From: a virus
Lineage: Duplodnaviria > Heunggongvirae > Uroviricota > Caudoviricetes
DNA: 18,937 nt
Reading direction: 5' to 3' (one strand)
IMG/VR virus record: IMGVR_UViG_2547132278_000005
Location: 1 to 18,937 of that record
Shown here: in pieces, positions 1,395 through 18,362 of the stretch
Layout: each line of letters begins with the position of its first letter
Numbering within the stretch: position 1 is the stretch's first letter
The notes under the pieces: model-generated
Told to the model about the DNA's origin: nothing
The model's database searches: none
What the model saw: only the letters and a program-made list of their open reading frames with translations
Position numbers and translations under genes: made by a program

Positions 1395-1707
1395 CGGTTA
1401 CCTTCTCCACTTTCACAGAACATAACGGCACTTCGCTGTCGGATGCTTTTGCTGTTTGGGATTATCAAAGCGGCAGATATTCTTTCATCTTAAATTTTAC
1501 GTCTTTATCCTGACTGATGTTTATCCTGTTTGGCTGCGAAATAAATATAAAATTAATATATATGTTGTAATGATATATTTTTATAAATTATTCCCTGCGT
1601 GAATTTTAATAAATTTAATCTATCCCTTTATACGCAATACATTTACTTTCCTCTTTTGATGATCTTAAATGTCTTATTTTTCGTAATGTGTATAACAAGG
1701 AATAGTG

Positions 1708-2223
1708 ATGAAATTTAAAAAATGTCTTCTGCCTGTGGCAATGTTAGCGTCATTCACTCTGGCAGGATGCCAGTCAAATGCTGACGATCATGCTGCCGAT
1801 GTTTATCAAACCGATCAACTGAATACCAAACAAGAAACTAAAACCGTTAATATTATTTCCATTCTTCCCGCAAAAGTTGCCGTAGACAACTCCCAAAATA
1901 AACGGAACGCACAAGCCTTCGGCGCGCTTATTGGCGCAGTCGCTGGCGGTGTTATCGGCCACAACGTCGGGTCTGGCAGCAATTCCGGAACGACGGCAGG
2001 TGCAGTTGGCGGCGGAGCTGTAGGCGCGGCAGCGGGTTCTATGGTGAATGATAAAACCTTAGTGGAAGGTGTTTCTTTAACCTATAAGGAAGGCACCAAA
2101 GTGTATACCTCTACCCAGGTGGGTAAAGAGTGCCAGTTTACGACAGGTTTAGCCGTTGTTATTACCACGACGTATAACGAAACGCGTATTCAGCCAAATA
2201 CCAAATGTCCTGAAAAGAGCTAA
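1708..2223 (+). CDS. Outer-membrane lipoprotein with glycine-zipper region (YcfJ/SlyB/Pcp-like)
   Basis: Signal peptide with lipobox LAGC; Gly/Ala-rich stretch GALIGAVAGGVIGHNVGSGSNSGTTAGAVGGGAVGAAAG resembling YcfJ-type glycine zippers; ATG at 1708 with AAGGA SD (the ORF track starts at the GTG at 1705). Confidence 0.8.
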   Translation: MKFKKCLLPVAMLASFTLAGCQSNADDHAADVYQTDQLNTKQETKTVNIISILPAKVAVDNSQNKRNAQAFGALIGAVAGGVIGHNVGSGSNSGTTAGAVGGGAVGAAAGSMVNDKTLVEGVSLTYKEGTKVYTSTQVGKECQFTTGLAVVITTTYNETRIQPNTKCPEKS

Positions 2224-2238
2224 TAATCAGGAGGAGTC

Positions 2239-2778
2239 ATGAAGAAAGTTTTTCTTTGCGCCATCTTAGCCTCCTTAAGCTATCCGGCTATCGCCTCATC
2301 ATTGCAGGATCAACTCTCTGCTGTCGCAGAAGCGGAACAGCAAGGTAAAAATGAAGAGCAAAGGCAGCATGACGAATGGGTCGCGGAGCGCAACAGGGAA
2401 ATCCAGCAAGAGAAGCAACGTCGCGCAAATGCCCAGGCCGCCGCTAACAAAAGAGCGGCAACGGCAGCGGCAAATAAGAAAGCTCGTCAGGATAAACTGG
2501 ACGCCGAAGCCACTGCGGACAAAAAACGCGATCAAAGTTATGAAGATGAGCTACGCAGCTTAGAGATTCAGAAACAAAAACTGGCGCTGGCGAAAGAAGA
2601 AGCCCGCGTTAAGCGCGAAAACGAATTTATCGATCAGGAACTGAAGCACAAAGCTGCGCAAACCGATGTGGTGCAATCTGAAGCTGACGCCAACAGAAAT
2701 ATGACTGAAGGCGGTCGCGATCTGATGAAAAGCGTGGGCAAAGCAGAAGAGAACAAATCGGAAAGCTGGTTTAATTAA
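2239..2778 (+). CDS. Secreted/periplasmic charged coiled-coil protein
   Basis: Strong SD GGAGGAG; N-terminal signal peptide (MKKVFLCAILASLSYPAIA); remainder highly charged and Ala/Lys/Glu/Gln-rich, predicted helical. Confidence 0.75.
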   Translation: MKKVFLCAILASLSYPAIASSLQDQLSAVAEAEQQGKNEEQRQHDEWVAERNREIQQEKQRRANAQAAANKRAATAAANKKARQDKLDAEATADKKRDQSYEDELRSLEIQKQKLALAKEEARVKRENEFIDQELKHKAAQTDVVQSEADANRNMTEGGRDLMKSVGKAEENKSESWFN

Positions 2779-2816
2779 TCGATGTTAGTAACTTCAAGCC
2801 TATGATTCTTGAAGAT

Positions 2817-2849
2817 AAAAAACCCTCTGTAGTAACAGAGGGTTTTGTT
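2817..2849. terminator. Bidirectional rho-independent terminator between convergent genes
   Basis: AAAAA-CCCTCTG-tagtaa-CAGAGGG-TTTTGTT: 7-bp GC-rich stem flanked by an A-run and a T-run, lying between the 2239-2778 gene (+) and Rz (-). Confidence 0.7.
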
Positions 2850-2995
2850 CATTCATAGTGCAGGGTCAAATCATTCCCACTCAATTATTTACGGACACCA
2901 TAACCAATTGAGTAATAACATTTTTCCAAAGATGAATTTTTCCCATACCGTTTTATATACCGTCACCGGAAATCAGTACCATGAAAAATGCCATG

Positions 2996-3478
2996 CTATC
3001 TGGTCAGGGTGTCGTACTGTTTTTCGCAGACTCTTCCGGCTTCGGCTGCCCGGTCAGCATACTCTGCCAGTTGTCTGTTTCTCTCGAGAGATTTGCTGAG
3101 CACGTCGGCAAGCAAAACTCCGGTGTCTGCGGCTGACGACCCAGCGCCGACAATGGCGTTATAGTGCCTGAGCTGCTCACGGATGGCAACGAGCTGTTGC
3201 TGCAACCGGCCAGCGCGAGCGGCAGCATCAAGAGCATCATTGCGCGCCTGGTCGATCCTCTGCTGCGATTCACGTTCATTGATCGCTTTCTCCTGTTCGT
3301 AGTGCTGACGAACTCTCTCATCTTCAGTTTTGCGGTCTTCTTTCGCCTGAGCATACCCGGCGTCGTACTGACGACTGCCGTGCACATTCCAGGCTACAAC
3401 TCCTGATATGACCAGAACAGCAAGCATCGCCATGATAACCAACTGTTTTCTGTATGCTTTTACGAATGCCCAGATCAT
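2996..3478 (-). CDS. Rz-like i-spanin (inner-membrane spanin subunit)
   Basis: N-terminal TM helix, charged coiled-coil periplasmic domain; start overlaps the endolysin stop (ATGA); last gene of the lysis cassette. Confidence 0.8.
3004..3240 (-). CDS. Rz1-like o-spanin lipoprotein embedded in the +1 frame of Rz
   Basis: Internal ATG of ORF 3004-3387 gives [17 protein letters not shown]... with lipobox LAGC and a Pro/Ser-rich mature part, fully inside Rz. Exact start (3240 vs 3237) uncertain. Confidence 0.6.
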   Translation of the reverse strand: MMLLMLPLALAGCSNSSLPSVSSSGTITPLSALGRQPQTPEFCLPTCSANLSRETDNWQSMLTGQPKPEESAKNSTTP

Positions 3479-4104
3479 ACCGTCAGTACCTTACTGGCAG
3501 TGATGTACCGCGCGCGCCGGTCGTCGATGCCGTTCCTGCCACCATTGATAATCATAGTTACACGTACAATATCTCCGGTATACTTCATGCAGCCTTTGCA
3601 GGAGAAGAACCAGGCCGCGCTACGAGCCGCGTATTCGTCCAGTGCCAGCAGTTCAGGATTCTCCAGCAGGTCAACTTTCAGACCGTTTCCACAGTCACGA
3701 TAGTTATTCAAGCCGGTAATCTGGATAAGCCCGCGCCCACGGTAATTCCAGCCATCGCCGGGAGCATTGTTACCCATGCGTTTGCTGTATACCAGATTTG
3801 CGATCGCGCGCTGGCGCTCAAGTGGCAATGGTGGTTCACCAGCACGGCGCCCTAGTGCATTAGCCTGTTCCTGGGTGAGGCGTCCAGTCCTGACAAAGCT
3901 CGCCAGTCCGGTAACGCTGTAGTTGAAATTCTCCTGCAACCTAGTGAAGCCCCCAGACTCATGCCCGACTTGAGCAATAAACATTGCCTGATCTTCTGCT
4001 TTGCTGATACCAAACTCTTTCATCGCAGAAGTTATATGCGAGAACCAGCGAGCGGCCAGCACCTCGCTAATACCAGCAGCTCGCTGGAATTGCTTAATCT
4101 CCAT
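3475..4104 (-). CDS. Endolysin, glycoside hydrolase family 19 (chitinase-like lysozyme)
   Basis: GH19 motifs: [12 protein letters not shown] (catalytic Glu, compare plant chitinase AQTSHETTGG), second Glu in LQENFNY, and [15 protein letters not shown] (compare GRGPIQLSWNYNY); SD GAGG; overlaps flanking genes. Confidence 0.9.
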
Positions 4105-4402
4105 GTTTAGACCTCGTTATTTTGAAAATCTGAACGACGTTACCGCGCGTTTTAATAACCGCAGCAAGCATGACAGCGTTGATAATGACCTCTGATAAAT
4201 CCACAGCCATTGGCGTGCGTAACCAGATTGCATAAACGACACGAACTGGAATACTGGCCGCAGCAACAATCAGGAAATAAGCAAGCCACCCTCCCCATCT
4301 TCGGTGTTGAGATCCGTTACGCCGGAATGTGACAACGCGAATTGCTATACCAGTACAAATGACTGCATTAGTGATAAGCAAAAAAAACTCATGCGTTACC
4401 AT
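4094..4402 (-). CDS. Holin/antiholin-like small membrane protein (3 predicted TM helices)
   Basis: 102 aa, three hydrophobic segments, basic C-terminus; SD GGGGAG; overlaps the upstream membrane gene and the endolysin start, so sits immediately before the endolysin. Confidence 0.6.
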
Positions 4403-4793
4403 CGTCTTTTCTCCCCGGAATTAACTCGCGTGGATTATCTGAACGGTGATAGAGCCATATGCCAATACGCACAGCCACAATTGCTGAAACAAATGCACCA
4501 ACAGAAAAGGCCACTCCGCCTTCAAAAGAATCCTGTGTAATCGTTGGAATTAAGCTGGCTACTCCTATTAGGATTGACGAAGTTGGTTTGTAGAAGAGCA
4601 ATCCACAAAGGAAACTAAGCATGGACAAAAGAACTCTGCGACGAACTGGATACTCTACGGCAGAGGTAATGAAAATTACCGCCCCAGATAAAGAACCTAA
4701 TGCAACCTCTGGTGGCACACCTGCAATAAAAGCAATCAGGCCACCAACGCCAATTGATTGATTTAATTGGTAATTTGTAAATACACCAGACAT
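4389..4793 (-). CDS. Holin-like membrane protein (4 predicted TM helices)
   Basis: Four hydrophobic helices and a charged C-terminus ([19 protein letters not shown]); ATG at 4793 preceded by GGTGG (the ORF track starts at the GTG at 4802, which has no SD). Confidence 0.55.
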   Translation of the reverse strand: MSGVFTNYQLNQSIGVGGLIAFIAGVPPEVALGSLSGAVIFITSAVEYPVRRRVLLSMLSFLCGLLFYKPTSSILIGVASLIPTITQDSFEGGVAFSVGAFVSAIVAVRIGIWLYHRSDNPRELIPGRKDDGNA

Positions 4794-4850
4794 TTCAACC
4801 ACCCGTTAACATACATAAAAACCTCGTTAATCAAAAATAGAAACACATAA

Positions 4851-4886
4851 ATTAATAAAACCACCCGTTATGCGGGTGGTTTTATT
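4851..4886. terminator. Rho-independent terminator after the tailspike gene (functional on minus strand, possibly bidirectional)
   Basis: AAAA-CCACCCG-ttatg-CGGGTGG-TTTTATTT; on the minus strand the stem is followed by TTTTATTAAT. Confidence 0.7.
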
Positions 4887-4901
4887 TCATCCACTTACTT
4901 C

Positions 4902-7400
4902 TTATATGGCTACCATGGCTGTAGAGCCAGAGCCATAGGCACTTGATTCTAACTCGAGAGTGTAATATCCATTCTTAGTACCACCATCAACTCCTGACCA
5001 ATCAAATGATAATGAAATCCAGTAACCACTTTCACTAGGATCTTGCACAAGATTGTCACCCATACCCCTTATACGCCTAATAGGTTGATTAGGGCCGACA
5101 GAATCAACTTCATATATATCTGTCATATTTCGTCCTATCTGTCTGGCTGTGATAACAGGCCAAGAGCCACTATAATTTAATATAGTAACAAGGAATTGAG
5201 TGTCATTGTTTATCTTGGAAAGTATAGCTTCAATATACCCATTACCATGCGTTCCTCCTTTTGAGTTTATGCGTAGCTTTGCTATCCCAGTGTCAAACAT
5301 ATTTAGTCTGTTATCAAACGTTCTTGGATGCAGATCAGCTGGAAGAGGCAATCGAATAGAAGATAAAGTATATGGGGATGGTGTATCTTCTGGATTACCT
5401 ATGATCATATTTGGTAATCTTACTACAATTGATTCTCTAACCCCTTTTTGAATACCAGTTACCGGTTGGGATAAATGAACATGGACTGGGCGTATAGTAA
5501 TCCCCTGAATACTTGCATATCCTGTTGTTGTACCATTAAGATTATTAAATATAGCTATAGTTTTCCACCCTCTCCCCACTAAATTAGCAGCTCGTTTGGG
5601 AATTGTATCAAGTTTATGATTATGTCTATTTCTTAAAAAACGACCTGTTGATTGCTGAGCATATAAATTATGCCATAAGCTAGAACGTTGTGTTGAATAT
5701 GGATATATATCAACTGCTCCGGCATACCATCCATCAGTGACAATTGATATCTGATTATCATCCCAATAACCAATTACATCTACCTCAGCAGCCTCAGCAT
5801 CAAGATAAAAACTAAATGTTGCCATTGCTGCTGTATTAATGGGAAAGCCACCAAGAATACCTTGTAAAGTTGAAGCTCTTTGATTATAAACATTCACTAA
5901 GTTTGAATATACATCATAAAATCCGACTTGATCAGATTGTTTTCCAGGCCATGTATGCACTTCAGATGATATTGGTCTGTTACCCTGAAGTAACCCTCCA
6001 CCCAAAAGCATGGATACCATTGCCTCTCCTAAAATAGCATATCCTTTACTATTAAAGTGAACAGGGTCGCTTTGAATAGAACCATACTGTCTATTATAAG
6101 CAATTTCATGGGCAGGAAAATAAGCACATCCATAAACTGATGCAAGATTTCTTATTGACTCTCCCCACATTTGCCAAAGAGGATCCCCTTCCCCATTACC
6201 ACCGCTGGCAGGACTACAAAGTACAACCCCCATCCCCCAGTCAATAAGCTTACGAATAAATAACTCCATATTTTTCATATATGTATCGTAAGTCTGGCTA
6301 TCAGTATTAGCGGAGTCGTTAATTGCATACATTAAAAATGCTATATCGCAATTTGGATTAGACTGCCAATCAGGTTCATTATAAGCACGGTACGCTGTAT
6401 AACCTGATTTTGCTCGAACAGTTATTGTTACCGGGCAGCCAGACAATATTGGAAGTGCGTTCTTTATAGCCTTTGGATATGTCATTGTTGCATGGCGATA
6501 ATTATCACCAACGCAAACATCATCATCTTCTGGAGCGATAGTATCGGATGTATTAACATCATATCCAGCCGTTATTGAGTCCCCCTGACACAATATTTTT
6601 ATCCCTATTTTTTTTCGTAACTTATAATGAGCTAACGTAAGGTTTCTGATATTTTTTGAACGGTATTCTGCACTATCAAGAGATATCAACCACTCTTGAA
6701 TATTACGATTATCCGATGTATTAATAATGCTGGCACCTGTTGGCTTTGCCAACTCAATAAGTACATCAGATGCTGAACCAGATTCAGGAAGGACCATTAT
6801 CGGATTTCCAGAGTCATCCATAGCAACAATCTTATTCTTACGCTGCTCAATTCCCGGCAAAGCTGGTATAGGTTCAGGGGTTCGTAGCGTTCTGATCTGG
6901 TTTGTTTCAGAAACTCCATCAACATAATTTTTAGTCGCCGCATCTTGAGCGCGTGACGGTTCACGAAGATTGCGAATGTAGTTTCCCTGTGCATCATAAT
7001 AGTTAGCCACAAACGACGGCTTGCGTAACGCCAGGCTAAACCAGCTACGAACCTGCTGAATCAACATCGTTATTTTATCAAAAGCATTCTCATGCACTTC
7101 TGCAAAAAACTTTCCCTGATTACGCAGATCCATTTCCTGAGTAACAGGAAGCTCACGAGCTATAGATATCTGATGACCTCTAGCCAACGCCTCCGACAGA
7201 ACAACACTGCCGCCGTTGTACCCTCCAGCCCCGGTAACTGTGTAATCAGTATCAAGGGTCAGCACACTGACATTCTCGTTCAGGTCAACAACCTGCACCA
7301 CCAGATCCGATTTATTGAAAATCCTAAAGGTGTAAGGAAATGATGTCGTAACGCCGTTACCTGTGTATTCGTTGTGGTCAACTTCGGTTGAGACCGTCAT
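4902..7400 (-). CDS. Tailspike / receptor-binding protein with T7 gp17-like N-terminal anchor and central SGNH (GDSL) esterase domain
   Basis: 832 aa; N-terminus (YTGNGVTTSFPYTF...LVVQVVD...VLTLDTDYTV) resembles the conserved podovirus tail-fibre anchor; SGNH blocks GDS at 6576-6584 (ILCQGDSITAGYD) and DPVH (catalytic Asp/His) in SDPVHFNSKGY; SD GGAGA. Confidence 0.85.
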   Translation of the reverse strand: MTVSTEVDHNEYTGNGVTTSFPYTFRIFNKSDLVVQVVDLNENVSVLTLDTDYTVTGAGGYNGGSVVLSEALARGHQISIARELPVTQEMDLRNQGKFFAEVHENAFDKITMLIQQVRSWFSLALRKPSFVANYYDAQGNYIRNLREPSRAQDAATKNYVDGVSETNQIRTLRTPEPIPALPGIEQRKNKIVAMDDSGNPIMVLPESGSASDVLIELAKPTGASIINTSDNRNIQEWLISLDSAEYRSKNIRNLTLAHYKLRKKIGIKILCQGDSITAGYDVNTSDTIAPEDDDVCVGDNYRHATMTYPKAIKNALPILSGCPVTITVRAKSGYTAYRAYNEPDWQSNPNCDIAFLMYAINDSANTDSQTYDTYMKNMELFIRKLIDWGMGVVLCSPASGGNGEGDPLWQMWGESIRNLASVYGCAYFPAHEIAYNRQYGSIQSDPVHFNSKGYAILGEAMVSMLLGGGLLQGNRPISSEVHTWPGKQSDQVGFYDVYSNLVNVYNQRASTLQGILGGFPINTAAMATFSFYLDAEAAEVDVIGYWDDNQISIVTDGWYAGAVDIYPYSTQRSSLWHNLYAQQSTGRFLRNRHNHKLDTIPKRAANLVGRGWKTIAIFNNLNGTTTGYASIQGITIRPVHVHLSQPVTGIQKGVRESIVVRLPNMIIGNPEDTPSPYTLSSIRLPLPADLHPRTFDNRLNMFDTGIAKLRINSKGGTHGNGYIEAILSKINNDTQFLVTILNYSGSWPVITARQIGRNMTDIYEVDSVGPNQPIRRIRGMGDNLVQDPSESGYWISLSFDWSGVDGGTKNGYYTLELESSAYGSGSTAMVAI

Positions 7401-7503
7401 GTTAAATCTCCAGATAGTCGCAGCACCCGTTGCGCCGCATATCCGGTTATTCTATTACCTTAAAAACCACATATGGATAGATAACCCATAAATACGAATA
7501 GAT

Positions 7504-7520
7504 ATTACCTTTCGGGTAAT
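7504..7520. promoter_or_regulatory. Operator-like palindrome ATTACC-tttcg-GGTAAT (copy 1 of 4)
   Basis: Perfect 6-bp inverted arms with 5-bp spacer in the divergent region between the tailspike and the LexA-box gene; the same arms recur at 8624, 8717 and 9725. Confidence 0.5.
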
Positions 7521-7556
7521 TTGCAAAACGTGCTGGATAGCAAACAAATTATTTGC

Positions 7557-7576
7557 TACTGTATAAATATACAGTT
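7557..7576 (+). promoter_or_regulatory. LexA (SOS) box
   Basis: TACTGTATAAATATACAGTT against consensus TACTGTATATATATACAGTA (CTGT-N8-ACAG, 18/20), ending 20 bp upstream of the ATG at 7596. Confidence 0.75.
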
Positions 7577-7595
7577 ATTGCATGGAGAAGATAAG

Positions 7596-7853
7596 ATGCA
7601 GCAGTATCACTATCCACTGGAAGACGGATTTACCGAAAGGATTCACACGCCGGGAGGCGTCAGATCACTAGTGGAGGGATCGCACTTGATGAAATTACTC
7701 CGGGATCTCGATAAGGATGGATTTAATGTCGATGGCCCACTTGCCGAACTGACTGCACTGATTAACTACGTCACCAGCTCACAGATGTCTATGCGGGATC
7801 TGCAAACACATCTCGACTATTGTGCCGAACAATTACGAAAACAAACCCGGTAA
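7596..7853 (+). CDS. Small SOS-regulated protein (85 aa), paralog of the C-terminal domain of the AntA-like antirepressor; putative antirepressor module
   Basis: ATG with SD GGAGAAG directly downstream of the LexA box; aligns with residues ~130-210 of the 9004-9660 protein (shared GxxSL.E.S.LM.LL..L..DG..V.G..AELT...Y......RD.QTH..Y). The ORF track starts upstream at 7521, but that extension overlaps the promoter/LexA box. Confidence 0.65.
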   Translation: MQQYHYPLEDGFTERIHTPGGVRSLVEGSHLMKLLRDLDKDGFNVDGPLAELTALINYVTSSQMSMRDLQTHLDYCAEQLRKQTR

Positions 7854-7860
7854 ATTTAAA

Positions 7861-7876
7861 GGCCGCAAGAGCGGCC
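7861..7876. terminator. GC hairpin (GGCCGC-aaga-GCGGCC) between convergent genes, putative bidirectional terminator
   Basis: Perfect 6-bp GC stem flanked by AT-rich sequence on both sides; overlaps the stop of the minus-strand 7876-8604 gene. Confidence 0.5.
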
Positions 7877-8604
7877 TATCGTTTCGCTTTGTGCTCGTCC
7901 CAGCACGTTTTGCACCATGCCATTAAGCCATCCGCATTTTGATTATTAGGGTAAAAGCTTGTTCGTTTTCTGCGGACATTACAAATTGGGCACCACTTCA
8001 TATGGCGTGTATTCTTTGGGCCATCGAGACACCTTGCACACCACTTAGTCAATCCATCTGGATTTTTTGACGATTTCCTGAATTTTTCATATGGTAGGTT
8101 TATTCTGCATCGCAAGCACTGCTTGCTACCACTTGAAACTCTGTTAGCTGATTCTTCTTTTGGCGGCGATACAGAAGGTATTCTTGCTGGCTCTGATACT
8201 GCCTGAGGTGCTTTTTTAGATGACTGAGACGATATGTCATCACCAGGGAATCTTCCATGATATGCCGGACGCGTTGACACTCCAGGTGGAAGCTCAGCTG
8301 TAAACGGCTTTGGCTGAATCAGTTGCCTCTCTTTTGCTAACTCCTGCTGTTTATAATATGTCTGGATTACCGCACTATCATAAGCAGGAGGTGCGGAAAT
8401 ATTAGGCGCATTACCTCCAGTTTTTTGAAACTGAGTAGAGGTGTGTTCTATCACCTGTGTACGATTAATCGTTATCTCCCCATCTTCGGTCTTTATCGTT
8501 TTGTTATGATTAACGACCGTACGATCAGAGATCTTAGTCTTGTTCTGGTTGATAACGTAAATAATCACCGCAACCACACCAACAACTATCCAGAAAACTT
8601 CCAT
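7876..8604 (-). CDS. Membrane-anchored protein with two tandem C-x2-C-x20-C-x2-C zinc-ribbon repeats
   Basis: N-terminal TM helix (FWIVVGVVAVIIYVI), Pro/Ser-rich linker, then CLRCRINLPYEKFRKSSKNPDGLTKWCARC and CPICNVRRKRTSFYPNNQNADGLMAWCKTC (shared N.DGL..WC..C); SD GAGGA. Confidence 0.75.
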   Translation of the reverse strand: MEVFWIVVGVVAVIIYVINQNKTKISDRTVVNHNKTIKTEDGEITINRTQVIEHTSTQFQKTGGNAPNISAPPAYDSAVIQTYYKQQELAKERQLIQPKPFTAELPPGVSTRPAYHGRFPGDDISSQSSKKAPQAVSEPARIPSVSPPKEESANRVSSGSKQCLRCRINLPYEKFRKSSKNPDGLTKWCARCLDGPKNTRHMKWCPICNVRRKRTSFYPNNQNADGLMAWCKTCWDEHKAKR

Positions 8605-8623
8605 TGCTTTTCCTCACAATAAC

Positions 8624-8640
8624 ATTACCTTAAAGGTAAT
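8624..8640. promoter_or_regulatory. Operator-like palindrome ATTACC-ttaaa-GGTAAT (copy 2 of 4)
   Basis: Perfect palindrome about 20 bp upstream of the start codon of the 7876-8604 gene, abutting its SD. Confidence 0.5.
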
Positions 8641-8716
8641 ATCTTGCTTTCAGGTGATCAAGCGTTAAACGCAATCAACCAAATACGGTTGATTTTAATA
8701 TTTCTTCGCGTTTATC

Positions 8717-8733
8717 ATTACCTTTGCGGTAAA
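8717..8733. promoter_or_regulatory. Operator-like palindrome ATTACC-tttgc-GGTAAa (copy 3 of 4)
   Basis: Same arms and spacing as the other copies; lies at the head of the structured leader upstream of the AntA-like gene. Confidence 0.5.
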
Positions 8734-8767
8734 TTTACATTGCACTCCTCTTGTGCCATAGTAATCG

Positions 8768-8845
8768 GGCACTGGCAAAATCCAGTGCCGGGATTGGTCT
8801 CCCGGATTACTAAGTGGCGCATACCACGCCAGACGTGGTTTTTTT
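8768..8845 (+). other. Structured non-coding leader: two GC hairpins followed by a terminator-like hairpin with T-run (possible attenuator or small RNA)
   Basis: GGCACTGG-caaaat-CCAGTGCC (8768-8789); CCGGGA-ttggtc-TCCCGG (8788-8805); CCACG-ccaga-CGTGG-TTTTTTT (8824-8845). No credible ORF or RBS in this stretch. Confidence 0.3.
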
Positions 8846-9003
8846 ATGCGTATAGCACAGTCATGCCAGAATTATGGTGGGCTGAATGGGGGTCCGAAAG
8901 GACGCCGGTACCACTTAGGCCGGTAAGACCAACTCCGTTCAGTTCACCACCATCTGATTGGTCTCAGCGGTGGTGATGTAATTCGCTAAGTGGAGACGCC
9001 ATC

Positions 9004-9660
9004 ATGAACGCTCAACTCATCCCCGTATTCAACGGCACTATATCTAACGAAACAGCCCTACTTTGTAATGCCCGCGATCTGCACGCTTTTTTAGGTGTTA
9101 AAAAGGTGTTTGCAGCATGGATTACAAATCGCATATCAGAATACGAATTCATTGAAAATCAAGACTATATTTTGCTTTCCAATTTGGGAAAGCAAACATC
9201 TGGTAGAGGCGGCCACAACCGCAAAGAGTACCACCTCACCCTTGATACAGCCAAAGAGCTGGCGATGGTCGAGCGTAACGAAAAAGGTCGCCAGGTGCGA
9301 CGCTACTTCATTGAATGCGAGAAACGTTTAAGACAACAAGAAACAAAAGTGGAGAAGGTCTTGTCAGGCTTCATGCCCGCCATTATGGAGGCGATCAAGC
9401 TGGAAGACAAAAAAGAATACAGCGCCCCACTGAAGCCCGGCTACCGTAGCCTGATTCATTCGCCGTCTGGTGTTCTCGGCCTGACGGAGAACTCACTGCT
9501 GATGAATTTGCTGAACCAGTTACAGGAAGACGGGCACGACGTATCGGGCGCGGCGGCGGAACTGACCACCATGTTCTGCTACATCGTCGGTGTGAGCAAA
9601 TGCCTGCGTGATATCCAGACCCACGCGGAGTACATCAACGACAAGGCAGGGTTCTTCTGA
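9004..9660 (+). CDS. AntA-family phage antirepressor-like protein (N-terminal AntA domain plus C-terminal domain shared with the 7596-7853 protein)
   Basis: N-terminus LIPVFNG...[33 protein letters not shown]...[14 protein letters not shown]...[11 protein letters not shown] matches the AntA/AntB antirepressor family pattern; SD GGAG. Confidence 0.8.
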
Positions 9661-9724
9661 CAGAACGGCGGCACAGGGATGTGCCTTTAAATAATTCTGT
9701 ACGATTGCAGGTGAATAGCTTACT

Positions 9725-9741
9725 ATTACCTCAAGGGTAAG
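9725..9741. promoter_or_regulatory. Operator-like palindrome ATTACC-tcaag-GGTAAg (copy 4 of 4)
   Basis: Same arms and spacing; about 60 bp upstream of the 9800 start codon and downstream of a weak hairpin terminator (9670-9696). Confidence 0.5.
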
Positions 9742-9799
9742 AAAGCATTTTTAATCTTCCCTTCAAAACGCGTCCTGTAGCCAAACATGGGAGGACGAA

Positions 9800-10432
9800 A
9801 TGAGAACAAATACAACAAGAAAAGCGATGCCATACATTATCCCAGAAGCAGATTTCGATAGAAAACTGAACATGTCTGAGAAGAACACTAGTCACACCGA
9901 AAGCTACTTAGCGAAAGGTGTGGTTGATTTCGTTCTTCCGGGATTCACAACACCTTATGGTTATCGCCTTGTAAAATCTTGTAATGGCGATCATTACAGA
10001 ATGATTACTACCAGCGATACTCCAGAAACGGTGTATGCGGTTAAGTTAATCTTTCGGGAAGATATCGTCGAAGCCAAAAGAACATGTACGCAGATCATGG
10101 TATGGCGTACGCCTAATGTTATTCATGACCGTGCTGTTCATGGTTTGCCTCAGATTTTTTTTCAGTTCTTCCTAGAGCAATATGCGATCGTTGTATCTGA
10201 TGAGCAACAAACAATCGATGGGAGAAGATTCTGGGAAAGAATGATTTCTTGGGCTATAAACACCCCGGGATATAATGTATACGTTTCAGATGGCTCTGAA
10301 GAAGATAGACCTCTTAGCTTCATGACATCATGGGATGATTTCTATAGCCAGTGGGCTGATTTCTGTTGGGGCAGTGATAAAGATGTGCATACCCACAGAC
10401 TACTGGTTATAAGCAAAGATAAACTGCATTAA
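9800..10432 (+). CDS. Hypothetical protein (210 aa), unassigned accessory-island gene
   Basis: Strong SD GGGAGGA; soluble, Trp/Asp-rich, no recognised motif; followed immediately by a strong terminator. Confidence 0.75.
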   Translation: MRTNTTRKAMPYIIPEADFDRKLNMSEKNTSHTESYLAKGVVDFVLPGFTTPYGYRLVKSCNGDHYRMITTSDTPETVYAVKLIFREDIVEAKRTCTQIMVWRTPNVIHDRAVHGLPQIFFQFFLEQYAIVVSDEQQTIDGRRFWERMISWAINTPGYNVYVSDGSEEDRPLSFMTSWDDFYSQWADFCWGSDKDVHTHRLLVISKDKLH

Positions 10433-10437
10433 TAGAA

Positions 10438-10458
10438 GCCCGCGCCGCGGGCTTTTTT
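10438..10458 (+). terminator. Rho-independent terminator
   Basis: GCCCG-cgccg-CGGGC followed by TTTTTT, 6 bp after the stop codon at 10430-10432. Confidence 0.8.
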
Positions 10459-10495
10459 GTGTCTGCGGATTCCCGCCCGGGCGGCGGTGGCATTC

Positions 10496-10522
10496 GTTAA
10501 AAACAAGGCCGCGAAAGCGGCC
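10496..10522 (-). terminator. Rho-independent terminator for the minus-strand membrane-protein gene
   Basis: On the minus strand GGCCGC-tttc-GCGGCC is followed by TTGTTTTTAA; lies just downstream of the stop at 10532. Confidence 0.6.
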
Positions 10523-10531
10523 TGTGACATG

Positions 10532-10828
10532 TCACGCTCTTTTTCTGAATGATAGCCATTCGAAAAATGATGACATTCCACCGCAGACAATAGCAAATAT
10601 GATCCCACCAAAGAAGAGAAGGCCAGCCTGCCACCACTCCCACCGCCATACATCCACAGCGCCAACCATACCAACAATCGCTCCAACAAATGGAATATAG
10701 CTCACGATGAAAGCAATGGGGGCTGCAATTATCCAGTGCAATCCCCACCATGATTCAAGCCCAGCCATAATTGCTGCCAACTGAAAAAGACCAACGACGA
10801 TATAAACAATGAATCCTATAGCTTGCAT
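10532..10828 (-). CDS. Small polytopic membrane protein (98 aa), candidate superinfection-exclusion-type protein
   Basis: SD AGGTGA; 3-4 hydrophobic helices, Trp-rich loop (VWRWEWWQAG); sits directly after the ejection-protein genes, the position sieA occupies in P22. Confidence 0.7.
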   Translation of the reverse strand: MQAIGFIVYIVVGLFQLAAIMAGLESWWGLHWIIAAPIAFIVSYIPFVGAIVGMVGAVDVWRWEWWQAGLLFFGGIIFAIVCGGMSSFFEWLSFRKRA

Positions 10829-10840
10829 GTAGTCACCTAT

Positions 10841-13498: not shown

Positions 13499-13503
13499 TT
13501 AAT

Positions 13504-15306
13504 TTAACCTCTCAAGAAACACGCCACAGCGACATCAAACAGGCTGGAATCCTGTATTGCCTGCTCACTTTCCCTGTTCGCTTCATCCAGTACTTCACGC
13601 GCGCTGCGCGATTGTGGATTACCATCATCATCCAGCACGGTGATTATCATGTCCGGATATTCAAGCAGCGAGTCTTCAGCTATACGCAGATCAATATCTC
13701 CTGCCGGATCTGCCATCATTTTTTGTTCTGTCTGTTGCAATATCTTACCGGGCTCAAAAGGAGCTACTTCGTCTGGCGTCCTGACCTCTGCTGTTTTATA
13801 GAATGAAACAGCCTGAGCATTAAGTTCACTTTCTGCCTGCTGTCTCCGAGCCAGTTCTGCTCGAGCTTCAAAAAACTGACCGCCAGGCTCATGCGGTGCC
13901 AACGCGTTACGGGAAAATTCCAGGCGTTCTTGTGCCTGCCGGATTCGTTGGTCAATATCCCGAAGTCTGGCCTGTTTATCTGATCGAGCACGAGACAAAG
14001 CTTTACCGCTACCGGTTGGCTCTTCTGCAAGAATTTGTGCGCGCTGTTCAGTGAGATTTTCAATAATTCGTTGGCTATTAGCGATTTCAGACTGGTAAAC
14101 CTGTCTATCGCCACGAGGCAAAAGCTGCGCAGCCTGTTCTTCAAGCAACCGATTTTCGATAGCGCGCGCCGTTACTCCATCATCTACAGATGACAGAGCC
14201 TCATTAACTGCCTGAGACAGCAGATTCTTGCGCCCAGGAATTTCACTGAAAGATGCAGACTCAACAATGCTGGCTACGTCTACAGGTCTCCCCTGGCTAA
14301 CATCAGACATGGTTTTTCGCAGAGCCTGAATGTGCGAATTACGCGAAAGCACGTTGATCGGCACGCCGGGAGCAATATCAATTTCAGCATGATGAGCGGC
14401 ATTCGCCGCCAGTGCAGCATCGACATCAACTGGTGAAAAATTTGGTGCGCTTGTAGACTCGCCGCGAGAGTTAATAAATCTGCCGACACCACCAAACGCC
14501 ACCCCAAGAACAGCATCAATAGCAATTGCCTGTCGATCCAACACATCATACTGGTTAGCCATTTCGCTATAGCCACCATCACGAAGCGTTTTTGCAGTAA
14601 GCCCACGCTGTGCCATACCGAACGCAATATTTGTACCTGCGGCATAGGCAATATCTGGCGTTGCACGTACTGCTGTTGCTGCGGCGCGTCGCACTGAACT
14701 TTCACCCGTCCGCGCAAGCTGAGCCGCCACACCTTCCGCCAGCGCACCACCAGCACGTAACCCGAGGCTCATAGGGATCAGTGTTCCGGCACCAGCAGTA
14801 ATACCCTGCACTAATCCCGCTTCCTGCGCCGTCCTGAAATCAACACCCTGTGCTGTCAGCCGTTCAAACTCAGAAAAACCCTGTAGAGAAGTTACCGCCG
14901 CAGCACCTCCGACCGGACCACCGAGTGTTGTACCGACAACAGCCTGCCCGCCCATATCGAACAACCCATAAAGAACCTGCCCGGCGGTTCCGGTTGTCGC
15001 GGCATCAGGCGTCAGCCGCTTAACCTGCTGCTCTGCTAGTTTTCTCTGCTCGGCAATGTATGAAACTGAAGTGTCATTGAGCGAGGTGTTTTCGTTAACA
15101 AACTGAGCAATCGGGGATACGATTTTATCCATCCCTGCCCATAGCAACTGATCTGGCTTTGCCACCAGCCCGGAGTACAAACCAGACAATGCCGCTCCTA
15201 CAGCATTGTCGAAAAAACCAACATCGCTGTTAAAGCCCGCTGGATTTGATGCTGCTTCGTCAAGCTGCTGATTCTGGTTTACTGGATTAAGGCCAAAGTA
15301 ACTCAT
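13504..15306 (-). CDS. Virion internal/ejection-type protein (600 aa), Ala/Gly-rich
   Basis: ATGA start/stop overlap with the upstream gene at 15303-15306; Ala/Gly-rich low-complexity N-terminal half. Confidence 0.8.
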   Translation of the reverse strand: MSYFGLNPVNQNQQLDEAASNPAGFNSDVGFFDNAVGAALSGLYSGLVAKPDQLLWAGMDKIVSPIAQFVNENTSLNDTSVSYIAEQRKLAEQQVKRLTPDAATTGTAGQVLYGLFDMGGQAVVGTTLGGPVGGAAAVTSLQGFSEFERLTAQGVDFRTAQEAGLVQGITAGAGTLIPMSLGLRAGGALAEGVAAQLARTGESSVRRAAATAVRATPDIAYAAGTNIAFGMAQRGLTAKTLRDGGYSEMANQYDVLDRQAIAIDAVLGVAFGGVGRFINSRGESTSAPNFSPVDVDAALAANAAHHAEIDIAPGVPINVLSRNSHIQALRKTMSDVSQGRPVDVASIVESASFSEIPGRKNLLSQAVNEALSSVDDGVTARAIENRLLEEQAAQLLPRGDRQVYQSEIANSQRIIENLTEQRAQILAEEPTGSGKALSRARSDKQARLRDIDQRIRQAQERLEFSRNALAPHEPGGQFFEARAELARRQQAESELNAQAVSFYKTAEVRTPDEVAPFEPGKILQQTEQKMMADPAGDIDLRIAEDSLLEYPDMIITVLDDDGNPQSRSAREVLDEANRESEQAIQDSSLFDVAVACFLRG

Positions 15307-17255
15307 TGCGGAATATCTCCGGAGAATCTCTGACGCTTCTGAGTCAGATCAAGAACAACGGGAGAACCATCATCTTTCAGCAGATAACCAGTACCAAGTT
15401 TCACCAGGTACTGACTATCGCCGTAACTTTGCAAACCATACTGACCAGGCGGTGTTTTTATCCCTGTGCCAACAACTTGTTCATTCCAAACCTGATTAAC
15501 CTGCTTATCGAATTGCTCTGCAGACATTCCCCACGGCAAAAGAACATTCCCCATTCCGTTATAGTCATGCACGCCACCTGTAGCTACGTTAACAGCCTGT
15601 TTCCAGATATCATTGTCAATTTCGCCTGATACCACGCCTTTTTTCGCCATCACACCAGCGTAATAGTCCTTTGCGATCTCGTATGCCATTGATGCCCCCT
15701 GAGCATCACCAGCAAATGCATCCTTCACCATGTCAGAAAACTCAAGGCGAAGATCAGCATCTTTAGGCATCGGAATACCTTTCGCGTCATCAGTACCCTT
15801 ACGAGCCGCCGCACCAGCAAGAATTGTCTGCGCTGCGGTTTCAGGAGACACGGAAACATCAGGATTAAACCAGTTTTTTTCTGCCAAAATACCACCAGGC
15901 TTATCCATCAGTATCCCGGCAACGGCAGCAGATGGAGCGTTGGCACTGATCTGCTGTAGTGCTGACATATACACCTGCCCACCACCAGTGCTCTGCCTGA
16001 TGGTATCGAGATATGCTGCCTGTTGGGAAACTGGAGCATCACGAAAGAAAACACCGATCTGATTGGCCTCGTCTTTGGAAAAGAACGTCAGTGGAGTGCC
16101 ATATGACTTAGCAAGGTCACTGACCTGAGCGGCACGCAAGGCAACGCTCTGTCCAAAGTTATCCTTATTGCTCATGTCGATAGGCTTTGCCTGTCCGGAG
16201 GCAAGAGAGAACTGCACAGGATCCGACTGCCGCTGCTTTATCACCTGATTTGCAGCCGAAACAACGTTGTCATAAAGAGCTGCGCGTGCCGCATACCCCT
16301 CCCCTGTCTCACCAGTATCCGGGCGTAATTGCTCAACATATGCTGTAATGCTGCTTGTCGGCATGTTGCGGAAAGAGCCTATATACTGTCCGGCGATTTG
16401 CGTATTTCTGAACTCGGTATATCGCAGGTTTCCTTCTCTTACTCCATAAGCTGCAATAAAATCAGCCTCACCAGGTGGGTTAGGAAATTCAACGCCACGC
16501 ATATACGCAGCTGTCGCATCGCGAACCTGGCTGTCAATCATCGTTTTATATTCAGCCTGCTGCTGCCGACGCAGTTGATCCGCCTGTCGCATAAAACTTG
16601 CCTGCGCCTCAGGAGATGCCGCATCGAATGCTGCATTACCGGTATAGCGTTTGGTGTTGGTTGGAATTGTTGATAAACCAAGTGCTGCACTGACACCAGC
16701 AGTTAACTGCTGATCACTGTATGGCTGGCTACCGTTCTCATGATGGATAATGGCTGCACAAAGCGCCTTCAGGGTATCAGGATTAGATGCATCGAGAGGC
16801 TCATCAGCAGAAACGCCAAGTTGTTCGCACACTGCTTTGATATACGACATAGTGTCATTTTTATCAGTAGGCGGTGCCCAGCGATTAATTATCTCGCTGA
16901 CGGTATCAATACCCTGCCTCTGATACGACATCAGGTTTCGCCCTAATGCACGAATCCCGTGTTCAGGTGTTTCGAATTTAGCAAATCGACCATCATCACC
17001 GGTCTGGCCTACCCACGGATTAGTTTTGCTGTATTCGAGATTTCCTGGGTTATTGTTGCGTATGCCACGGGCACGCTCGGAAGAGTCACTATCTGCTACA
17101 GCACGGCGAGCTCCAGCAGCAGTATCACTTAACTCGCCATTACTTTGGATGAATGCGGTCGCATTGTTTGCCGACCACTGGGACAATGCGGCATCAGCAA
17201 CCTTCTCTTTAAACTCGACTTTCTTGGCCTGGGATTTGCTCGTCGCTCCAGCCAT
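15303..17255 (-). CDS. Virion internal protein with conserved N-terminal motif (RGIRNNNPGNLEYSK...ETPEHGIRALGRNL); possible virion-associated cell-wall enzyme
   Basis: Start placed at the ATG at 17255 (GAGGA 14 nt upstream, 47-nt overlap with the upstream gene); the ORF track's 17351 start would overlap by 142 nt and has no SD. Enzymatic assignment is unverified. Confidence 0.7.
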   Translation of the reverse strand: MAGATSKSQAKKVEFKEKVADAALSQWSANNATAFIQSNGELSDTAAGARRAVADSDSSERARGIRNNNPGNLEYSKTNPWVGQTGDDGRFAKFETPEHGIRALGRNLMSYQRQGIDTVSEIINRWAPPTDKNDTMSYIKAVCEQLGVSADEPLDASNPDTLKALCAAIIHHENGSQPYSDQQLTAGVSAALGLSTIPTNTKRYTGNAAFDAASPEAQASFMRQADQLRRQQQAEYKTMIDSQVRDATAAYMRGVEFPNPPGEADFIAAYGVREGNLRYTEFRNTQIAGQYIGSFRNMPTSSITAYVEQLRPDTGETGEGYAARAALYDNVVSAANQVIKQRQSDPVQFSLASGQAKPIDMSNKDNFGQSVALRAAQVSDLAKSYGTPLTFFSKDEANQIGVFFRDAPVSQQAAYLDTIRQSTGGGQVYMSALQQISANAPSAAVAGILMDKPGGILAEKNWFNPDVSVSPETAAQTILAGAAARKGTDDAKGIPMPKDADLRLEFSDMVKDAFAGDAQGASMAYEIAKDYYAGVMAKKGVVSGEIDNDIWKQAVNVATGGVHDYNGMGNVLLPWGMSAEQFDKQVNQVWNEQVVGTGIKTPPGQYGLQSYGDSQYLVKLGTGYLLKDDGSPVVLDLTQKRQRFSGDIPQ

Positions 17256-17817
17256 GCGCAATGCCGTAATCCTCAATTTGCTGGAAAGTTTGCTTATTAG
17301 CCAATACGTATGCGGCGTTGTCGCCATACAATGCTGCGGCATTTTTACCATTGTTCAGCAGCGTAGCCTGAAACTGGCCTTCTTCGTAGGCGTTTATTTG
17401 CCCTATCTCGTGCCGCCCGGCCTGCGTAGTGAACTGAATGCGCTGCTGCTGCGCCTGCTGCATGAAAGTATTACGAGCCTGTTCATCCGGCAGCGACATA
17501 GCCAGTTGTTCGACCTGAGCATCAAACTGCTGCGTATACTCATGGCCTTTTCCAATAGCATTTTTCCCTTTCAGGTTAAGCAACCCTGTTTCAGGGTTAT
17601 TCAGCAGATCGCTGCTTATCTGACTGAGGTTAAGAGATGCCTCCTGAGCCAGAGCGATATTGGCACGCTGTTTTGCCTGACCAAAAACATCAATAGTCTC
17701 TGCCCCTGCCCGAACAAAAGCATCACCAATACCTGGCTGAGAAAACGTCTGCAAGACTGCTGACTGAACTCCACGGCTCTCAACCTGACGTCCGGATACT
17801 GTTGGTACGACTGGCAT
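17209..17817 (-). CDS. Virion structural protein (202 aa)
   Basis: ATG at 17815-17817 with SD GGAGGA and a TAATG overlap with the upstream gene stop; the ORF track's 17892 start lies inside the upstream gene. Confidence 0.7.
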   Translation of the reverse strand: MPVVPTVSGRQVESRGVQSAVLQTFSQPGIGDAFVRAGAETIDVFGQAKQRANIALAQEASLNLSQISSDLLNNPETGLLNLKGKNAIGKGHEYTQQFDAQVEQLAMSLPDEQARNTFMQQAQQQRIQFTTQAGRHEIGQINAYEEGQFQATLLNNGKNAAALYGDNAAYVLANKQTFQQIEDYGIAHGWSDEQIPGQESRV

Positions 17818-18362
17818 TATAATCCTCCGGGTAATCTGGTTCCTGCTGCTGCCCCGATTGGCGCAGGAGTGCTTTGAGTAAACGGACTCCACGTCCCACC
17901 AAACATCTGGTACGCACCGTATGCCTTCAGAGGCGCAGTGAGCAATGTTGTTGCTGCTCCCACATTCCCCTGTTTACGGGCTGAACTGGCTTCTGCTTTA
18001 TAGTTGGCAGCCTGAACCTGATAACCGTAAGCCTCGCGTTGCGCGTTATTCACCGTCGTCAGCGAATCAAGAGCGCCAAACTGGGCAGTGTCGCCAAATA
18101 TATCCAGCGCGTTACCTGTAGATAAATCAGCGCCGGTAGCCCCCATTGTCGCCGCTTGTGTACCAAGCCGCTGTCGGGTCTCTCTGCGCCGTTGCTCAGC
18201 TTCAGCGTTACCTCTGTTTATTGCATCATTTGCCTGAGCAGTGGCTATATCTGCGTTCGCTTCTGCAACCTTCGAGGCATACTTTCCCTGTTGGTACTGG
18301 GTGTATGCCTGAATGCCACTCATGGCGAGCATTGCGCCACCAGCAATAACCGGATCGCACAT
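17817..18362 (-). CDS. Virion structural protein (181 aa), Ala/Gln-rich
   Basis: SD GGAGAG; TAATG overlap with the upstream ORF stop at 18362-18364. Confidence 0.7.
   Translation of the reverse strand: MCDPVIAGGAMLAMSGIQAYTQYQQGKYASKVAEANADIATAQANDAINRGNAEAEQRRRETRQRLGTQAATMGATGADLSTGNALDIFGDTAQFGALDSLTTVNNAQREAYGYQVQAANYKAEASSARKQGNVGAATTLLTAPLKAYGAYQMFGGTWSPFTQSTPAPIGAAAGTRLPGGL

Follow-up and report, generated by a model that had tools for sequence, protein, structure and literature searches.

The solved tailspikes of three virulent Shigella phages, B2 gp48, Moo19 gp82 and SFP21A gp09, share a common plan in which a neck, an SGNH esterase and beta domains follow one another behind an attachment part of Schitoviridae or T7-like type. 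Preparations of Moo19 gp82 and of the B2 tailspike have hydrolytic activity on 4-nitrophenyl acetate, and an S. flexneri gtr- oacD double mutant resists infection by both B2 and Moo19 (PMC11654681). A literature search found no publication on the SFP21A structure (PDB 9lna). Phage G7C gp63.1 (PDB 4QNL) is also an SGNH esterase tailspike and deacetylates O-antigen. The uetakeviruses epsilon15 and phiV10 carry beta-helix enzymes as the bodies of their tailspikes (gp20 and gp25, respectively). In epsilon15 gp20, an endorhamnosidase, an SGNH 'petal' has been added at the C-terminus (bioRxiv 10.64898/2026.07.31.742079), and this preprint was the only literature found on an SGNH domain in Uetakevirus.

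The tailspike gene described here belongs to a prophage of the ETEC strain TW10722 (O115:H5), and the window (the whole stretch of DNA analysed, 18,937 nucleotides) corresponds to AELB01000040.1. Judged by homology, its product is a phiV10/epsilon15-like (Uetakevirus) prophage tailspike that joins a conserved anchor to a widely exchanged SGNH esterase receptor module (Table 1). The tail fibre genes of phiV10 and phiv142-3 are syntenic with it, and the genomic position equals that in phiV10 and epsilon15, with a divergent 85-aa gene upstream and a holin/endolysin/Rz cassette downstream. Although the body here is an SGNH esterase module rather than a beta-helix enzyme, the architecture is of known type and the protein itself is already in RefSeq, where an exact-sequence match (WP_000218904.1) is named 'SGNH/GDSL hydrolase family protein'. 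The tailspike is a genuine yet fairly ordinary case of phages exchanging host-recognition parts. Among 5,426 complete E. coli genomes searched with the full gene, no locus gave at least 80% query cover, the listed matches being to the anchor only, and none of the deposited phage genomes has both halves in one gene.

Table 1. Features of the tailspike locus, in window coordinates
Feature	Position	Strand	Basis
Tailspike gene, 832 aa	4902..7400	(-)	ORF list and translation
Proximal phage-binding domain, codons 1-143	6972..7400	(-)	GC3 change point; epsilon15/phiV10/SPN1S identity; Dpo31
Distal phage-binding domain, codons 144-217	6750..6971	(-)	blastn end points; sliding identity; PDB match
Recombination junction, codons 210-225, peptide ASDVLIELAKPTGASI	6726..6773	(-)	blastn ends, alignments, sliding identity
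Module start, codons 216-264, with long helix 234-263	6609..6755	(-)	AF2 secondary structure; 9d84/9lna/9d80 alignments
SGNH (GDSL) esterase domain (predicted), codons 265-470	5991..6608	(-)	Pfam; invariant residues; Foldseek; motif coordinates
All-beta distal domains, codons 471-832	4905..5990	(-)	AF2 model; per-segment identities; GC3
Terminator-like hairpin, 14 pairs, then AT-rich T-containing tail	4854..4886	(-)	16 nt past the tailspike stop codon
Segment without nucleotide homology to phiV10 or phiv142-3	4728..6747	(-)	blastn of the window against both phages

The prophage is integrated beside yfgI, and its uetakevirus backbone matches phiv142-3 and phiV10 at 95-98% identity, with 98% in the virion genes. 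An IS100 end at 18677 abuts or interrupts the p16 homologue, the opposite end of the contig has an IS1 fragment, and a frameshift appears in the p18 homologue. The TW10722 copy may therefore be defective, in which case TW10722 might make no use of the spike. Taken further, the IS elements and the apparent frameshift would fit a functionless relic in a decaying prophage, or an SGNH domain kept for binding alone, but this is a very improbable account of the gene. The ORF is intact with every catalytic residue conserved, identical 832-aa copies are present in several independent samples, the cluster around the spike at 90% identity has 60 members and extends to other E. coli and E. albertii isolates, and contig ends at IS copies are commonplace. 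The p18 frameshift may itself be an assembly error, because another sample with an identical spike has an uninterrupted copy of the homologue (837 aa).

The mosaic homology and the coordinates of its junction are direct observations. Anchor-type homology ends at codon 218, where nucleotide homology to phiV10 also ceases, and esterase-module homology begins at codon 216, so that the two overlap at the junction (window about 6750); G222, at the junction, is invariant in 54 of 54 aligned proteins. The sequence-only reading had placed the junction near residue 150, which is too early; codons 141-143, where phiv142-3 homology ends and GC3 shifts, form a second mosaic boundary. The segment that lacks nucleotide homology to phiV10 and phiv142-3 runs from the esterase module through the terminator into the holin-like gene, of which it takes in the initial ~22 codons; the phiV10 counterpart of the segment measures 3.2 kb and holds a beta-helix tail-fibre body and, by the phiV10 annotation, the oac O-acetyltransferase gene. 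A cassette exchange would have brought in the module, with one breakpoint at the conserved ...SGSAxDVxxELAxxxGA... junction and the other within the opening codons of the holin-like gene that follows, and would have displaced a cassette of the phiV10 kind (beta-helix body plus oac).

The anchor is firmly assigned, on its sequence, to the phage-binding domains of the epsilon15 gp20 / phiV10 gp25 type. Residues 1-239/266 are 73-79% identical to the N-termini of the epsilon15, phiV10 and SPN1S tailspikes, the surrounding virion gene cluster is uetakeviral, and the similarity stops at residue about 218-240; past residue about 240, epsilon15 gp20 has no detectable sequence similarity to the TW10722 spike. 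The proximal part (codons 1-143) has backbone-like GC3 (0.49), and the anchor matches the N-terminus of Dpo31 (PDB 8ck1; E 4e-26). The distal part (codons 144-217) already has AT-rich third positions, shows 75-93% nucleotide identity with phiV10 and no homology to phiv142-3, and is overlapped by PDB matches 9m4c/9m4d at residues 135-218. AF2 models the N-terminal 220 residues as a monomer with low confidence (pLDDT 40-70). An initial description of this region as a T7 gp17-like conserved anchor was right about the conservation, but the T7 label is weak: Pfam Phage_T7_tail (PF03906) scores 16.7 bits (E 0.0061) against a gathering score of 25.2, hhalign gives E 0.03 at 29% identity over a colinear stretch (12-160 to 11-154), and T7 gp17 is absent from the phmmer PDB matches at E<=10. 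Membership in the T7 gp17 family was rejected on these sub-threshold results, although a remote relationship, to which the resemblance of codons 1-143 to the gp17 N-terminus points, is plausible.

Residues 216-832 form a module whose putative catalytic triad is S275-D445-H448, with G333 and N361 as predicted oxyanion residues. Pfam Lipase_GDSL_2 (PF13472) matches residues 273-456 (E 1.2e-11; 45.9 bits against a gathering score of 32.9). Block I is GDSIT at residues 273-277, with GDS (273-275) at window 6576-6584 and S275 as nucleophile; block II is S332-G333, block III N361-D362 (AIND), and block V DPVH (D445-P-V-H448) at window 6057-6068. These include the block I GDS, block II Gly, GxND Asn and DxxH of the SGNH/GDSL superfamily, and the early placement of SGNH blocks within ~265-465 proved accurate. 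G273, D274, S275, S332, G333, N361, D362, D445 and H448 show no variation across an alignment of 22 homologues that takes in the biochemically tested Moo19 gp82 and B2 gp48. The AF2 monomer model has pLDDT mostly 85-97 over residues 240-832, with 89-97 from residue 240 in the module start and mostly above 85 across the alpha/beta/alpha, flavodoxin-like fold of residues 265-470, which Foldseek matches to TesA, 1yzf, 4rw0 and others (TM 0.7-0.8, normalised by target). Helix 234-263 is interpreted, in the model, as a trimer neck.

The nearest characterised relatives of the module are, by sequence comparison, B2 gp48, Moo19 gp82 and SFP21A gp09 rather than G7C gp63.1. Searched against PDB with phmmer, the spike matches 9d84 (B2 gp48; E 8e-109, residues 212-819), 9lna (SFP21A gp09; E 1e-101) and 9d80/81 (Moo19 gp82; E 2e-101), matches that jointly span residues 212-827 at 33-37% identity and begin at residues 212-216 in the 9d84, 9lna and 9d80 alignments. 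Foldseek recovers the same class over neck, SGNH and distal beta domains (E 2e-62 to 5e-55; 9d84 at E 2e-62, 9d81 at TM 0.87 and 9lna at TM 0.88, both normalised by target), followed by 4qnl and TesA-type folds. The predicted structure thus contains the esterase fold that the sequence-only reading had anticipated, together with the whole B2/Moo19/SFP21A tailspike body, and by the solved homologues the spike is presumably homotrimeric (PMC11654681). The order of parts and the SGNH residues are as in the three Shigella phages, but the attachment part here is of epsilon15/phiV10 type and the TW10722 element is a temperate prophage.

The comparison with G7C gp63.1, which that reading had drawn, stands as remote kinship of the SGNH domains. 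The hhalign match (94.5%, E 8e-8) covers the SGNH domain alone (260-458 to 260-487), Foldseek gives E 3e-14 at 11% identity with a whole-chain TM of 0.37-0.38, and the remainder of the spike has no detectable homology to the regions of gp63.1 beyond its SGNH domain. Because BLASTP finds no significant similarity between the two proteins, the spike is not filed in the gp63.1 family.

The distal beta domains (codons 471-832) are the least conserved part of the spike, with 24-32% identity to phage homologues where the SGNH domain has about 50%, and are presumed to be the receptor-specificity region. Since they are only 24-32% identical to those of B2, Moo19 and SFP21A, the receptor probably differs and substrate specificity is not transferable from these phages. 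A hidden glycanase in residues 471-832 was considered and rejected, with no Pfam match there and Foldseek matches solely to esterase tailspikes.

The same class of module occurs on at least four anchor types besides that of the uetakeviruses. Copies on Tail_spike_N anchors (P0002-P0004), from Lelliottia and other prophages, share homology from codon 216-217 at 76-82% amino acid and 69-75% nucleotide identity, and the TW10722 module is closer to these than to the SGNH spikes of uetakevirus type (P0005-P0021; phrog_8460). The latter, from Citrobacter, Salmonella, E. fergusonii and E. coli prophages, have an equal two-part architecture and synteny, with 45-52% identity overall, about 50% in the SGNH domain and 25-38% in the distal domains. 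Further members sit on P22 head-binding anchors (P0034, P0037 and P0038), on T7-like gp17 fibres (SH3, Dev2 and SFP21A) and on Schitoviridae spikes. Together with the mosaic homology, this distribution bears out the proposal that a conserved anchor received its enzymatic receptor module by recombination.

Composition along the gene is not uniform, and anchor DNA is more GC-rich than the downstream part, as had been judged by eye: GC is 0.467 and GC3 0.48 in codons 1-150, against 0.382 and 0.238 in codons 241-832, with the lowest GC3 (0.22) in codons 471-832. The best GC3 change point falls after codon 143 (0.49 to 0.25), at window 6971, so the boundary first estimated at ~6950 was accurate. 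A GC3 likelihood ratio this large was reached in 0 of 2000 codon permutations; GC1+2 is flat (0.46 vs 0.46; observed value reached in 1884 of 2000 permutations), and the observed change is therefore confined to synonymous sites. Blocks of 60 codons show a ramp (0.53, 0.42, 0.37, 0.33, 0.23) without a step, although blocks of this size could blur a step at the exact junction.

What the shift records is a separate matter, because the ramp is common to six of six uetakevirus tailspike genes checked and so marks the locus rather than this one event. We lean towards a locus-wide trait that uetakevirus tailspike genes have in common, arising from repeated exchange at breakpoints scattered over the anchor, from weak codon selection acting on receptor modules, or from both. 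The same ramp (0.52-0.57 to 0.2-0.4) occurs in phiV10 and phiv142-3, which have unrelated C-terminal modules, and in three other SGNH-type uetakevirus prophages; the fall begins at codon about 60-143, well ahead of the junction at 216-218. The closest module relatives have GC3 of 0.36 and 0.46, above the 0.24 of the TW10722 copy, and the module adopts the composition of the genome that carries it (SH3 0.51, B2 0.24). A locus-wide trait is compatible with recombination, which the mosaic homology shows independently. Of the compositional break once proposed as a footprint of acquisition, then, the synonymous shift is real but a single sharp step marking the recombination point was rejected, and the ramp lends background support to the view that this locus is prone to recombination.

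Next to the spike, Pfam and PHROGs scans of the adjacent ORFs revealed neither an O-acetyltransferase nor any other conversion gene, whereas oac adjoins the spike in phiV10. The gene is likewise missing at the phiV10-equivalent position in four of four SGNH-type uetakevirus prophages examined, and none of the uetakevirus-type SGNH spikes P0005-P0021 is accompanied by oac; like phiV10, PAS61 and TL-2011b have an O-acetyltransferase in the matched region. In the Lelliottia prophage with the closest module copy, the spike is paired with a stand-alone GDSL protein and with an acetyltransferase of the Acyl_transf_3-SGNH type, so in some genomes this spike is indeed accompanied by genes that add and remove acetyl groups. 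It is a tentative and rather doubtful suggestion that the uetakevirus locus holds either a glycanase spike with oac or an esterase spike without it, the latter as a counter-move over O-acetylation. If true, the esterase cassette would let a phage use or strip acetyl groups set by hosts or rival prophages against adsorption, and lysogens with this cassette would need a means of superinfection exclusion other than acetylation.

The module probably targets an O-acetylated surface polysaccharide, to judge from its class. In the O115 polysaccharide, Rha and GalA bear multiple populations of O-acetyl groups (PMC9912281), and such heavy O-acetylation fits the predicted substrate; the host's own O115 O-antigen is the most likely one, a link that is circumstantial given that the spike's cluster also occurs in other E. 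coli and in E. albertii isolates. In the proposed mechanism, residues 1-218 would be the phage-binding arm, specific to the lineage, by which the spike is fitted into the tail, while residues 216-832 would form a self-contained receptor module of neck helix, SGNH esterase and distal beta-sandwich domains. This module would bind the O-acetylated polysaccharide and strip its acetyl groups without cutting the chain, allowing a reversible, enzyme-driven adsorption. We infer the esterase activity, trimer state and substrate identity, as well as the direction and timing of the exchange, from the observed homology, catalytic-residue conservation and fold; the explanation as a whole (a prophage spike with an exchanged deacetylating module and a likely O115 substrate) is probably right.

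Host type is often a poor predictor of RBP specificity, according to a study of Klebsiella prophages in which SGNH RBPs of temperate phages were linked to capsule types and esterase activity was confirmed for two of them (PMC13123978). The predicted esterase might by extension act on capsule (K antigen) or another acetylated exopolysaccharide instead of O-antigen, and the distal domains, at 24-32% identity, are too divergent for specificity to be carried over from the O-antigen-dependent Shigella phages. Such a substrate is nonetheless unlikely: the characterised class members B2 and Moo19 and the remote G7C gp63.1 all act in an O-antigen context, the relatives epsilon15 and phiV10 are O-antigen-specific phages with O-antigen conversion genes, and the O115 O-antigen of the host is itself heavily acetylated.

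TW10722 is a human-challenge ETEC strain. Given that its O115 antigen is acetylated, an O-antigen esterase encoded by the prophage could, speculatively, affect antigen heterogeneity in vaccine and challenge studies. The locus also provides a cleanly mapped natural exchange of a receptor module, with a junction defined to within a few codons and a module documented on five virion anchors, and the exchange at this junction is a design template for host-range engineering of epsilon15/phiV10-type phages. The spike, from a temperate E. coli phage, would also add to the mounting signs that deacetylation, beside depolymerisation, is a common means of adsorption.

The tailspike is split in two by homology. 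In tblastn searches of phage genomes, residues 1-239/266 are 71-79% identical to the tailspikes of epsilon15, phiV10, SPN1S and their relatives. Residues 216-832 share ~35% identity with the tail fibres of SH3, Dev2 and SFP21A, T7-like phages of Citrobacter, Cronobacter and Shigella, and with the Schitoviridae spikes of Moo19 and B2. These searches found both halves in one gene in no deposited phage. At the nucleotide level the two types of homology abut: phiV10 homology stops at codon 218 (window 6748), and homology to the closest module copies, P0002 (75% nucleotide, 82% amino acid identity) and the Lelliottia prophage protein P0004 (69%, 76%), starts at codon 216-217. The junction peptide is ASDVLIELAKPTGASI, and G222 in the junction region is invariant (54/54 aligned proteins). 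This mosaic homology supports the earlier proposal of recombination onto a conserved anchor, but the boundary, drawn there at residue ~150, belongs at codons 216-218.

Homology to phiV10 picks up again at 4727, within the opening codons of the holin-like gene, and the phiV10 counterpart of the replaced segment is 3.2 kb, comprising a beta-helix body and the oac O-acetyltransferase gene. The non-homologous segment takes in the first ~22 codons (4728-4802) of this gene (Phage_holin_8, 4389..4793/4802), placing the downstream breakpoint inside coding sequence.

Features of the tailspike locus and its surroundings
Feature	Coordinates	Strand	Remarks
Chromosome part	1-2868		IS1 fragment, pdeF fragment, yfgG, yfgH, yfgI
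phiV10/epsilon15-like (Uetakevirus) prophage	from 2869 onward		
Replaced segment versus phiV10	4728-6747		no homology to phiV10 or phiv142-3
Terminator-like hairpin	4854-4886		downstream of tailspike stop codon
Tailspike ORF	4902..7400	minus	832 residues; ORF list and translation

Composition also changes along the gene. GC content and GC at third codon positions (GC3) are 0.467 and 0.48 over codons 1-150, and 0.382 and 0.238 over codons 241-832. A likelihood change-point scan sets a GC3 break after codon 143 (window 6971; 0.49 vs 0.25), its likelihood ratio matched by 0 of 2000 codon permutations. GC at first and second positions is flat, so the signal is purely synonymous and reflects DNA history or codon usage, without a contribution from amino-acid content. 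The contrast between a GC-rich anchor and an AT-rich remainder, noted in the sequence-only reading, is thus genuine, but fails as a footprint of acquisition. GC3 per 60-codon block forms a ramp (0.53, 0.42, 0.37, 0.33, 0.23), and the ramp recurs in three further SGNH-type uetakevirus prophage spikes and, despite C-terminal bodies unrelated to that of this spike, in the phiV10 and phiv142-3 tail-fibre genes. The esterase module adopts the composition of each carrier genome, with a GC3 of 0.51 in Citrobacter phage SH3, 0.46 in the Lelliottia prophage and 0.24 in Shigella phage B2. The shift is a property of the locus, not of this module's acquisition. Homology to phiv142-3 stops at codon 141, coinciding with the GC3 change point, so the anchor holds at least two exchange points.

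In protein databases, the widely shuffled SGNH body occurs on Pfam Tail_spike_N anchors (P0002-P0004 and many more), on P22 head-binding anchors (P0034, P0037, P0038) and, at 45-52% overall identity, on epsilon15-type anchors (P0005-P0021; Citrobacter, Salmonella, E. fergusonii and E. coli). PHROG 8460 spans residues 5-757. The T7 gp17-like character once ascribed to the anchor finds a colinear alignment, but a weak one (hhalign E 0.03, 29% identity), and the T7 tail-fibre N-terminal domain (residues 11-161) scores 16.7 bits, under the Pfam threshold of 25.2; the T7 link is unproven. The anchor is best classed as an epsilon15 gp20/phiV10 gp25 phage-binding domain.

Pfam places a GDSL/SGNH domain (PF13472) at residues 273-456 (E 1.2e-11; 45.9 bits vs a gathering score of 32.9), and GDSIT (273-277) and DPVH (445-448) lie where the sequence-only reading had put them. 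In phmmer searches, residues 212-827 match PDB entries 9d84 (B2 gp48, E 8e-109), 9lna (E 1e-101) and 9d80/81 (Moo19 gp82, E 2e-101). An AlphaFold2 monomer model from a 54-sequence alignment has a mean pLDDT of 80.6, with most of residues 240-832 at 85-97; the N-terminal arm comes out poorly defined, as a flexible trimeric arm would. Foldseek confirms the anticipated SGNH esterase fold, matching 9d84 (E 2e-62), 9d81 (TM 0.87 normalised by target) and 9lna (SFP21A gp09, TM 0.88), then G7C gp63.1 (4qnl; E 3e-14, TM 0.38, 11% identity) and generic SGNH enzymes, e.g. TesA. G7C gp63.1, the comparison first offered, was rejected as a sequence homologue at BLASTP level; profile comparison joins the SGNH domains only (94.5%, E 8e-8, 260-458 to 260-487), a remote link, and among characterised proteins those of B2, Moo19 and SFP21A are closest. 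Residues G273, D274, S275, S332, G333, N361, D362, D445 and H448 are invariant across 22 sequences including B2 gp48 and Moo19 gp82. Identity to phage homologues drops from ~50% in the SGNH domain to 24-32% in the distal beta domains, which fits a distal specificity region. The original interpretation is essentially right once junction, nearest relatives, T7 link and composition are corrected. The identical RefSeq protein, WP_000218904.1, is named just 'SGNH/GDSL hydrolase family protein', and its cluster has 60 members in E. coli and E. albertii. The tailspike is an uncharacterised esterase-tailspike member; anchor kind, spike kind and modular exchange are all already known.

The window corresponds to AELB01000040.1, a contig from ETEC strain TW10722 (O115:H5). 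Prophage virion genes are 98% identical to phiv142-3 and phiV10, lysis genes 88-92%, and the spike anchor with the gene upstream of it 85-88% (window 2869-18690), so that the spike-proximal region as a whole has had a history unlike that of the structural module. As in phiV10, the tailspike gene is flanked by a divergent 85-aa gene and a holin/endolysin/Rz cassette.

Near the left end (window 1-851), part of an IS1 transposase (3-293) adjoins a pdeF MASE1-domain fragment (228-851); the contig start thus lies in an IS1 copy, apparently truncating pdeF. Homology to phiV10 ends at 18690, within a p16-like internal virion protein gene, and the last 260 bases (18677-18937) match IS100 (IS21 family, istA region) at 98%; either IS100 interrupts the prophage or the contig merely ends in an IS copy. 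The homologue of phiV10 p18 (837 aa) appears at 15303-17892 as two overlapping ORFs, 15303..17351 (682 aa) and 17209..17892, but is intact at 837 aa in another sample with an identical tailspike (L013), so the split may be an assembly error instead of decay. Two moron-like segments are insertions relative to phiV10 and phiv142-3. That at 7854-8711 holds a minus-strand ORF (7876..8604, 242 aa) matching phrog_6762 over its full length, its C-terminus giving zinc-finger-like matches to PHROGs of the endonuclease VII, Lar-like and HNH kinds; the other (9741-10461, GC 0.41) holds a plus-strand ORF (9800..10432, 210 aa) matching phrog_1349.

Four uetakevirus prophages with SGNH-type spikes were examined: that of the window, E. 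coli P0010, C. freundii P0005 and E. fergusonii P0015. None has oac between spike and lysis cassette, unlike phiV10, where it occupies this position; PAS61 and TL-2011b likewise have an O-acetyltransferase in their matched regions. Though far too few to conclude from, these cases suggest a swap of spike type together with acetyl-conversion genes as a single cassette. In the Lelliottia prophage with the closest module copy, acetyl-adding and acetyl-removing genes adjoin: a 227-aa GDSL protein and a 631-aa Acyl_transf_3-SGNH O-acetyltransferase (GC 0.34) are encoded directly downstream, on the strand opposite to the spike (L003 10262-12837). A second prophage encodes a 237-aa GDSL protein at the equivalent position (L005 5222-5935).

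Hydrolysis of 4-nitrophenyl acetate has been shown for purified Moo19 gp82 and for the B2 gp48/gp49 complex, and neither phage can infect an S. flexneri mutant without the gtr locus and oacD, a GlcNAc O-acetyltransferase gene (PMC11654681). The C-terminal SGNH 'petal' of epsilon15 gp20 deacetylates galactose (bioRxiv 10.64898/2026.07.31.742079), but no sequence similarity between it and this tailspike was detected beyond residue ~240. In the proposed mechanism, whose sequence and fold elements come from the comparisons made here and whose activity, trimer state and substrate we infer, the N-terminal 218 residues would anchor the spike on the tail, the module would bind acetylated surface polysaccharide, and an S275/D445/H448 triad, with G333 and N361 as oxyanion hole, would take off O-acetyl groups. 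A prophage's receptor-binding protein need not fit the current host, whose type was often a poor predictor of specificity in a study of Klebsiella prophages (PMC13123978). The O115 O-polysaccharide is described, as cited in a later paper, as several populations O-acetylated on rhamnose and galacturonic acid (Fontana et al. 2013 via PMC9912281), circumstantial support for the host's own acetylated surface polysaccharide as the substrate that this spike may deacetylate.
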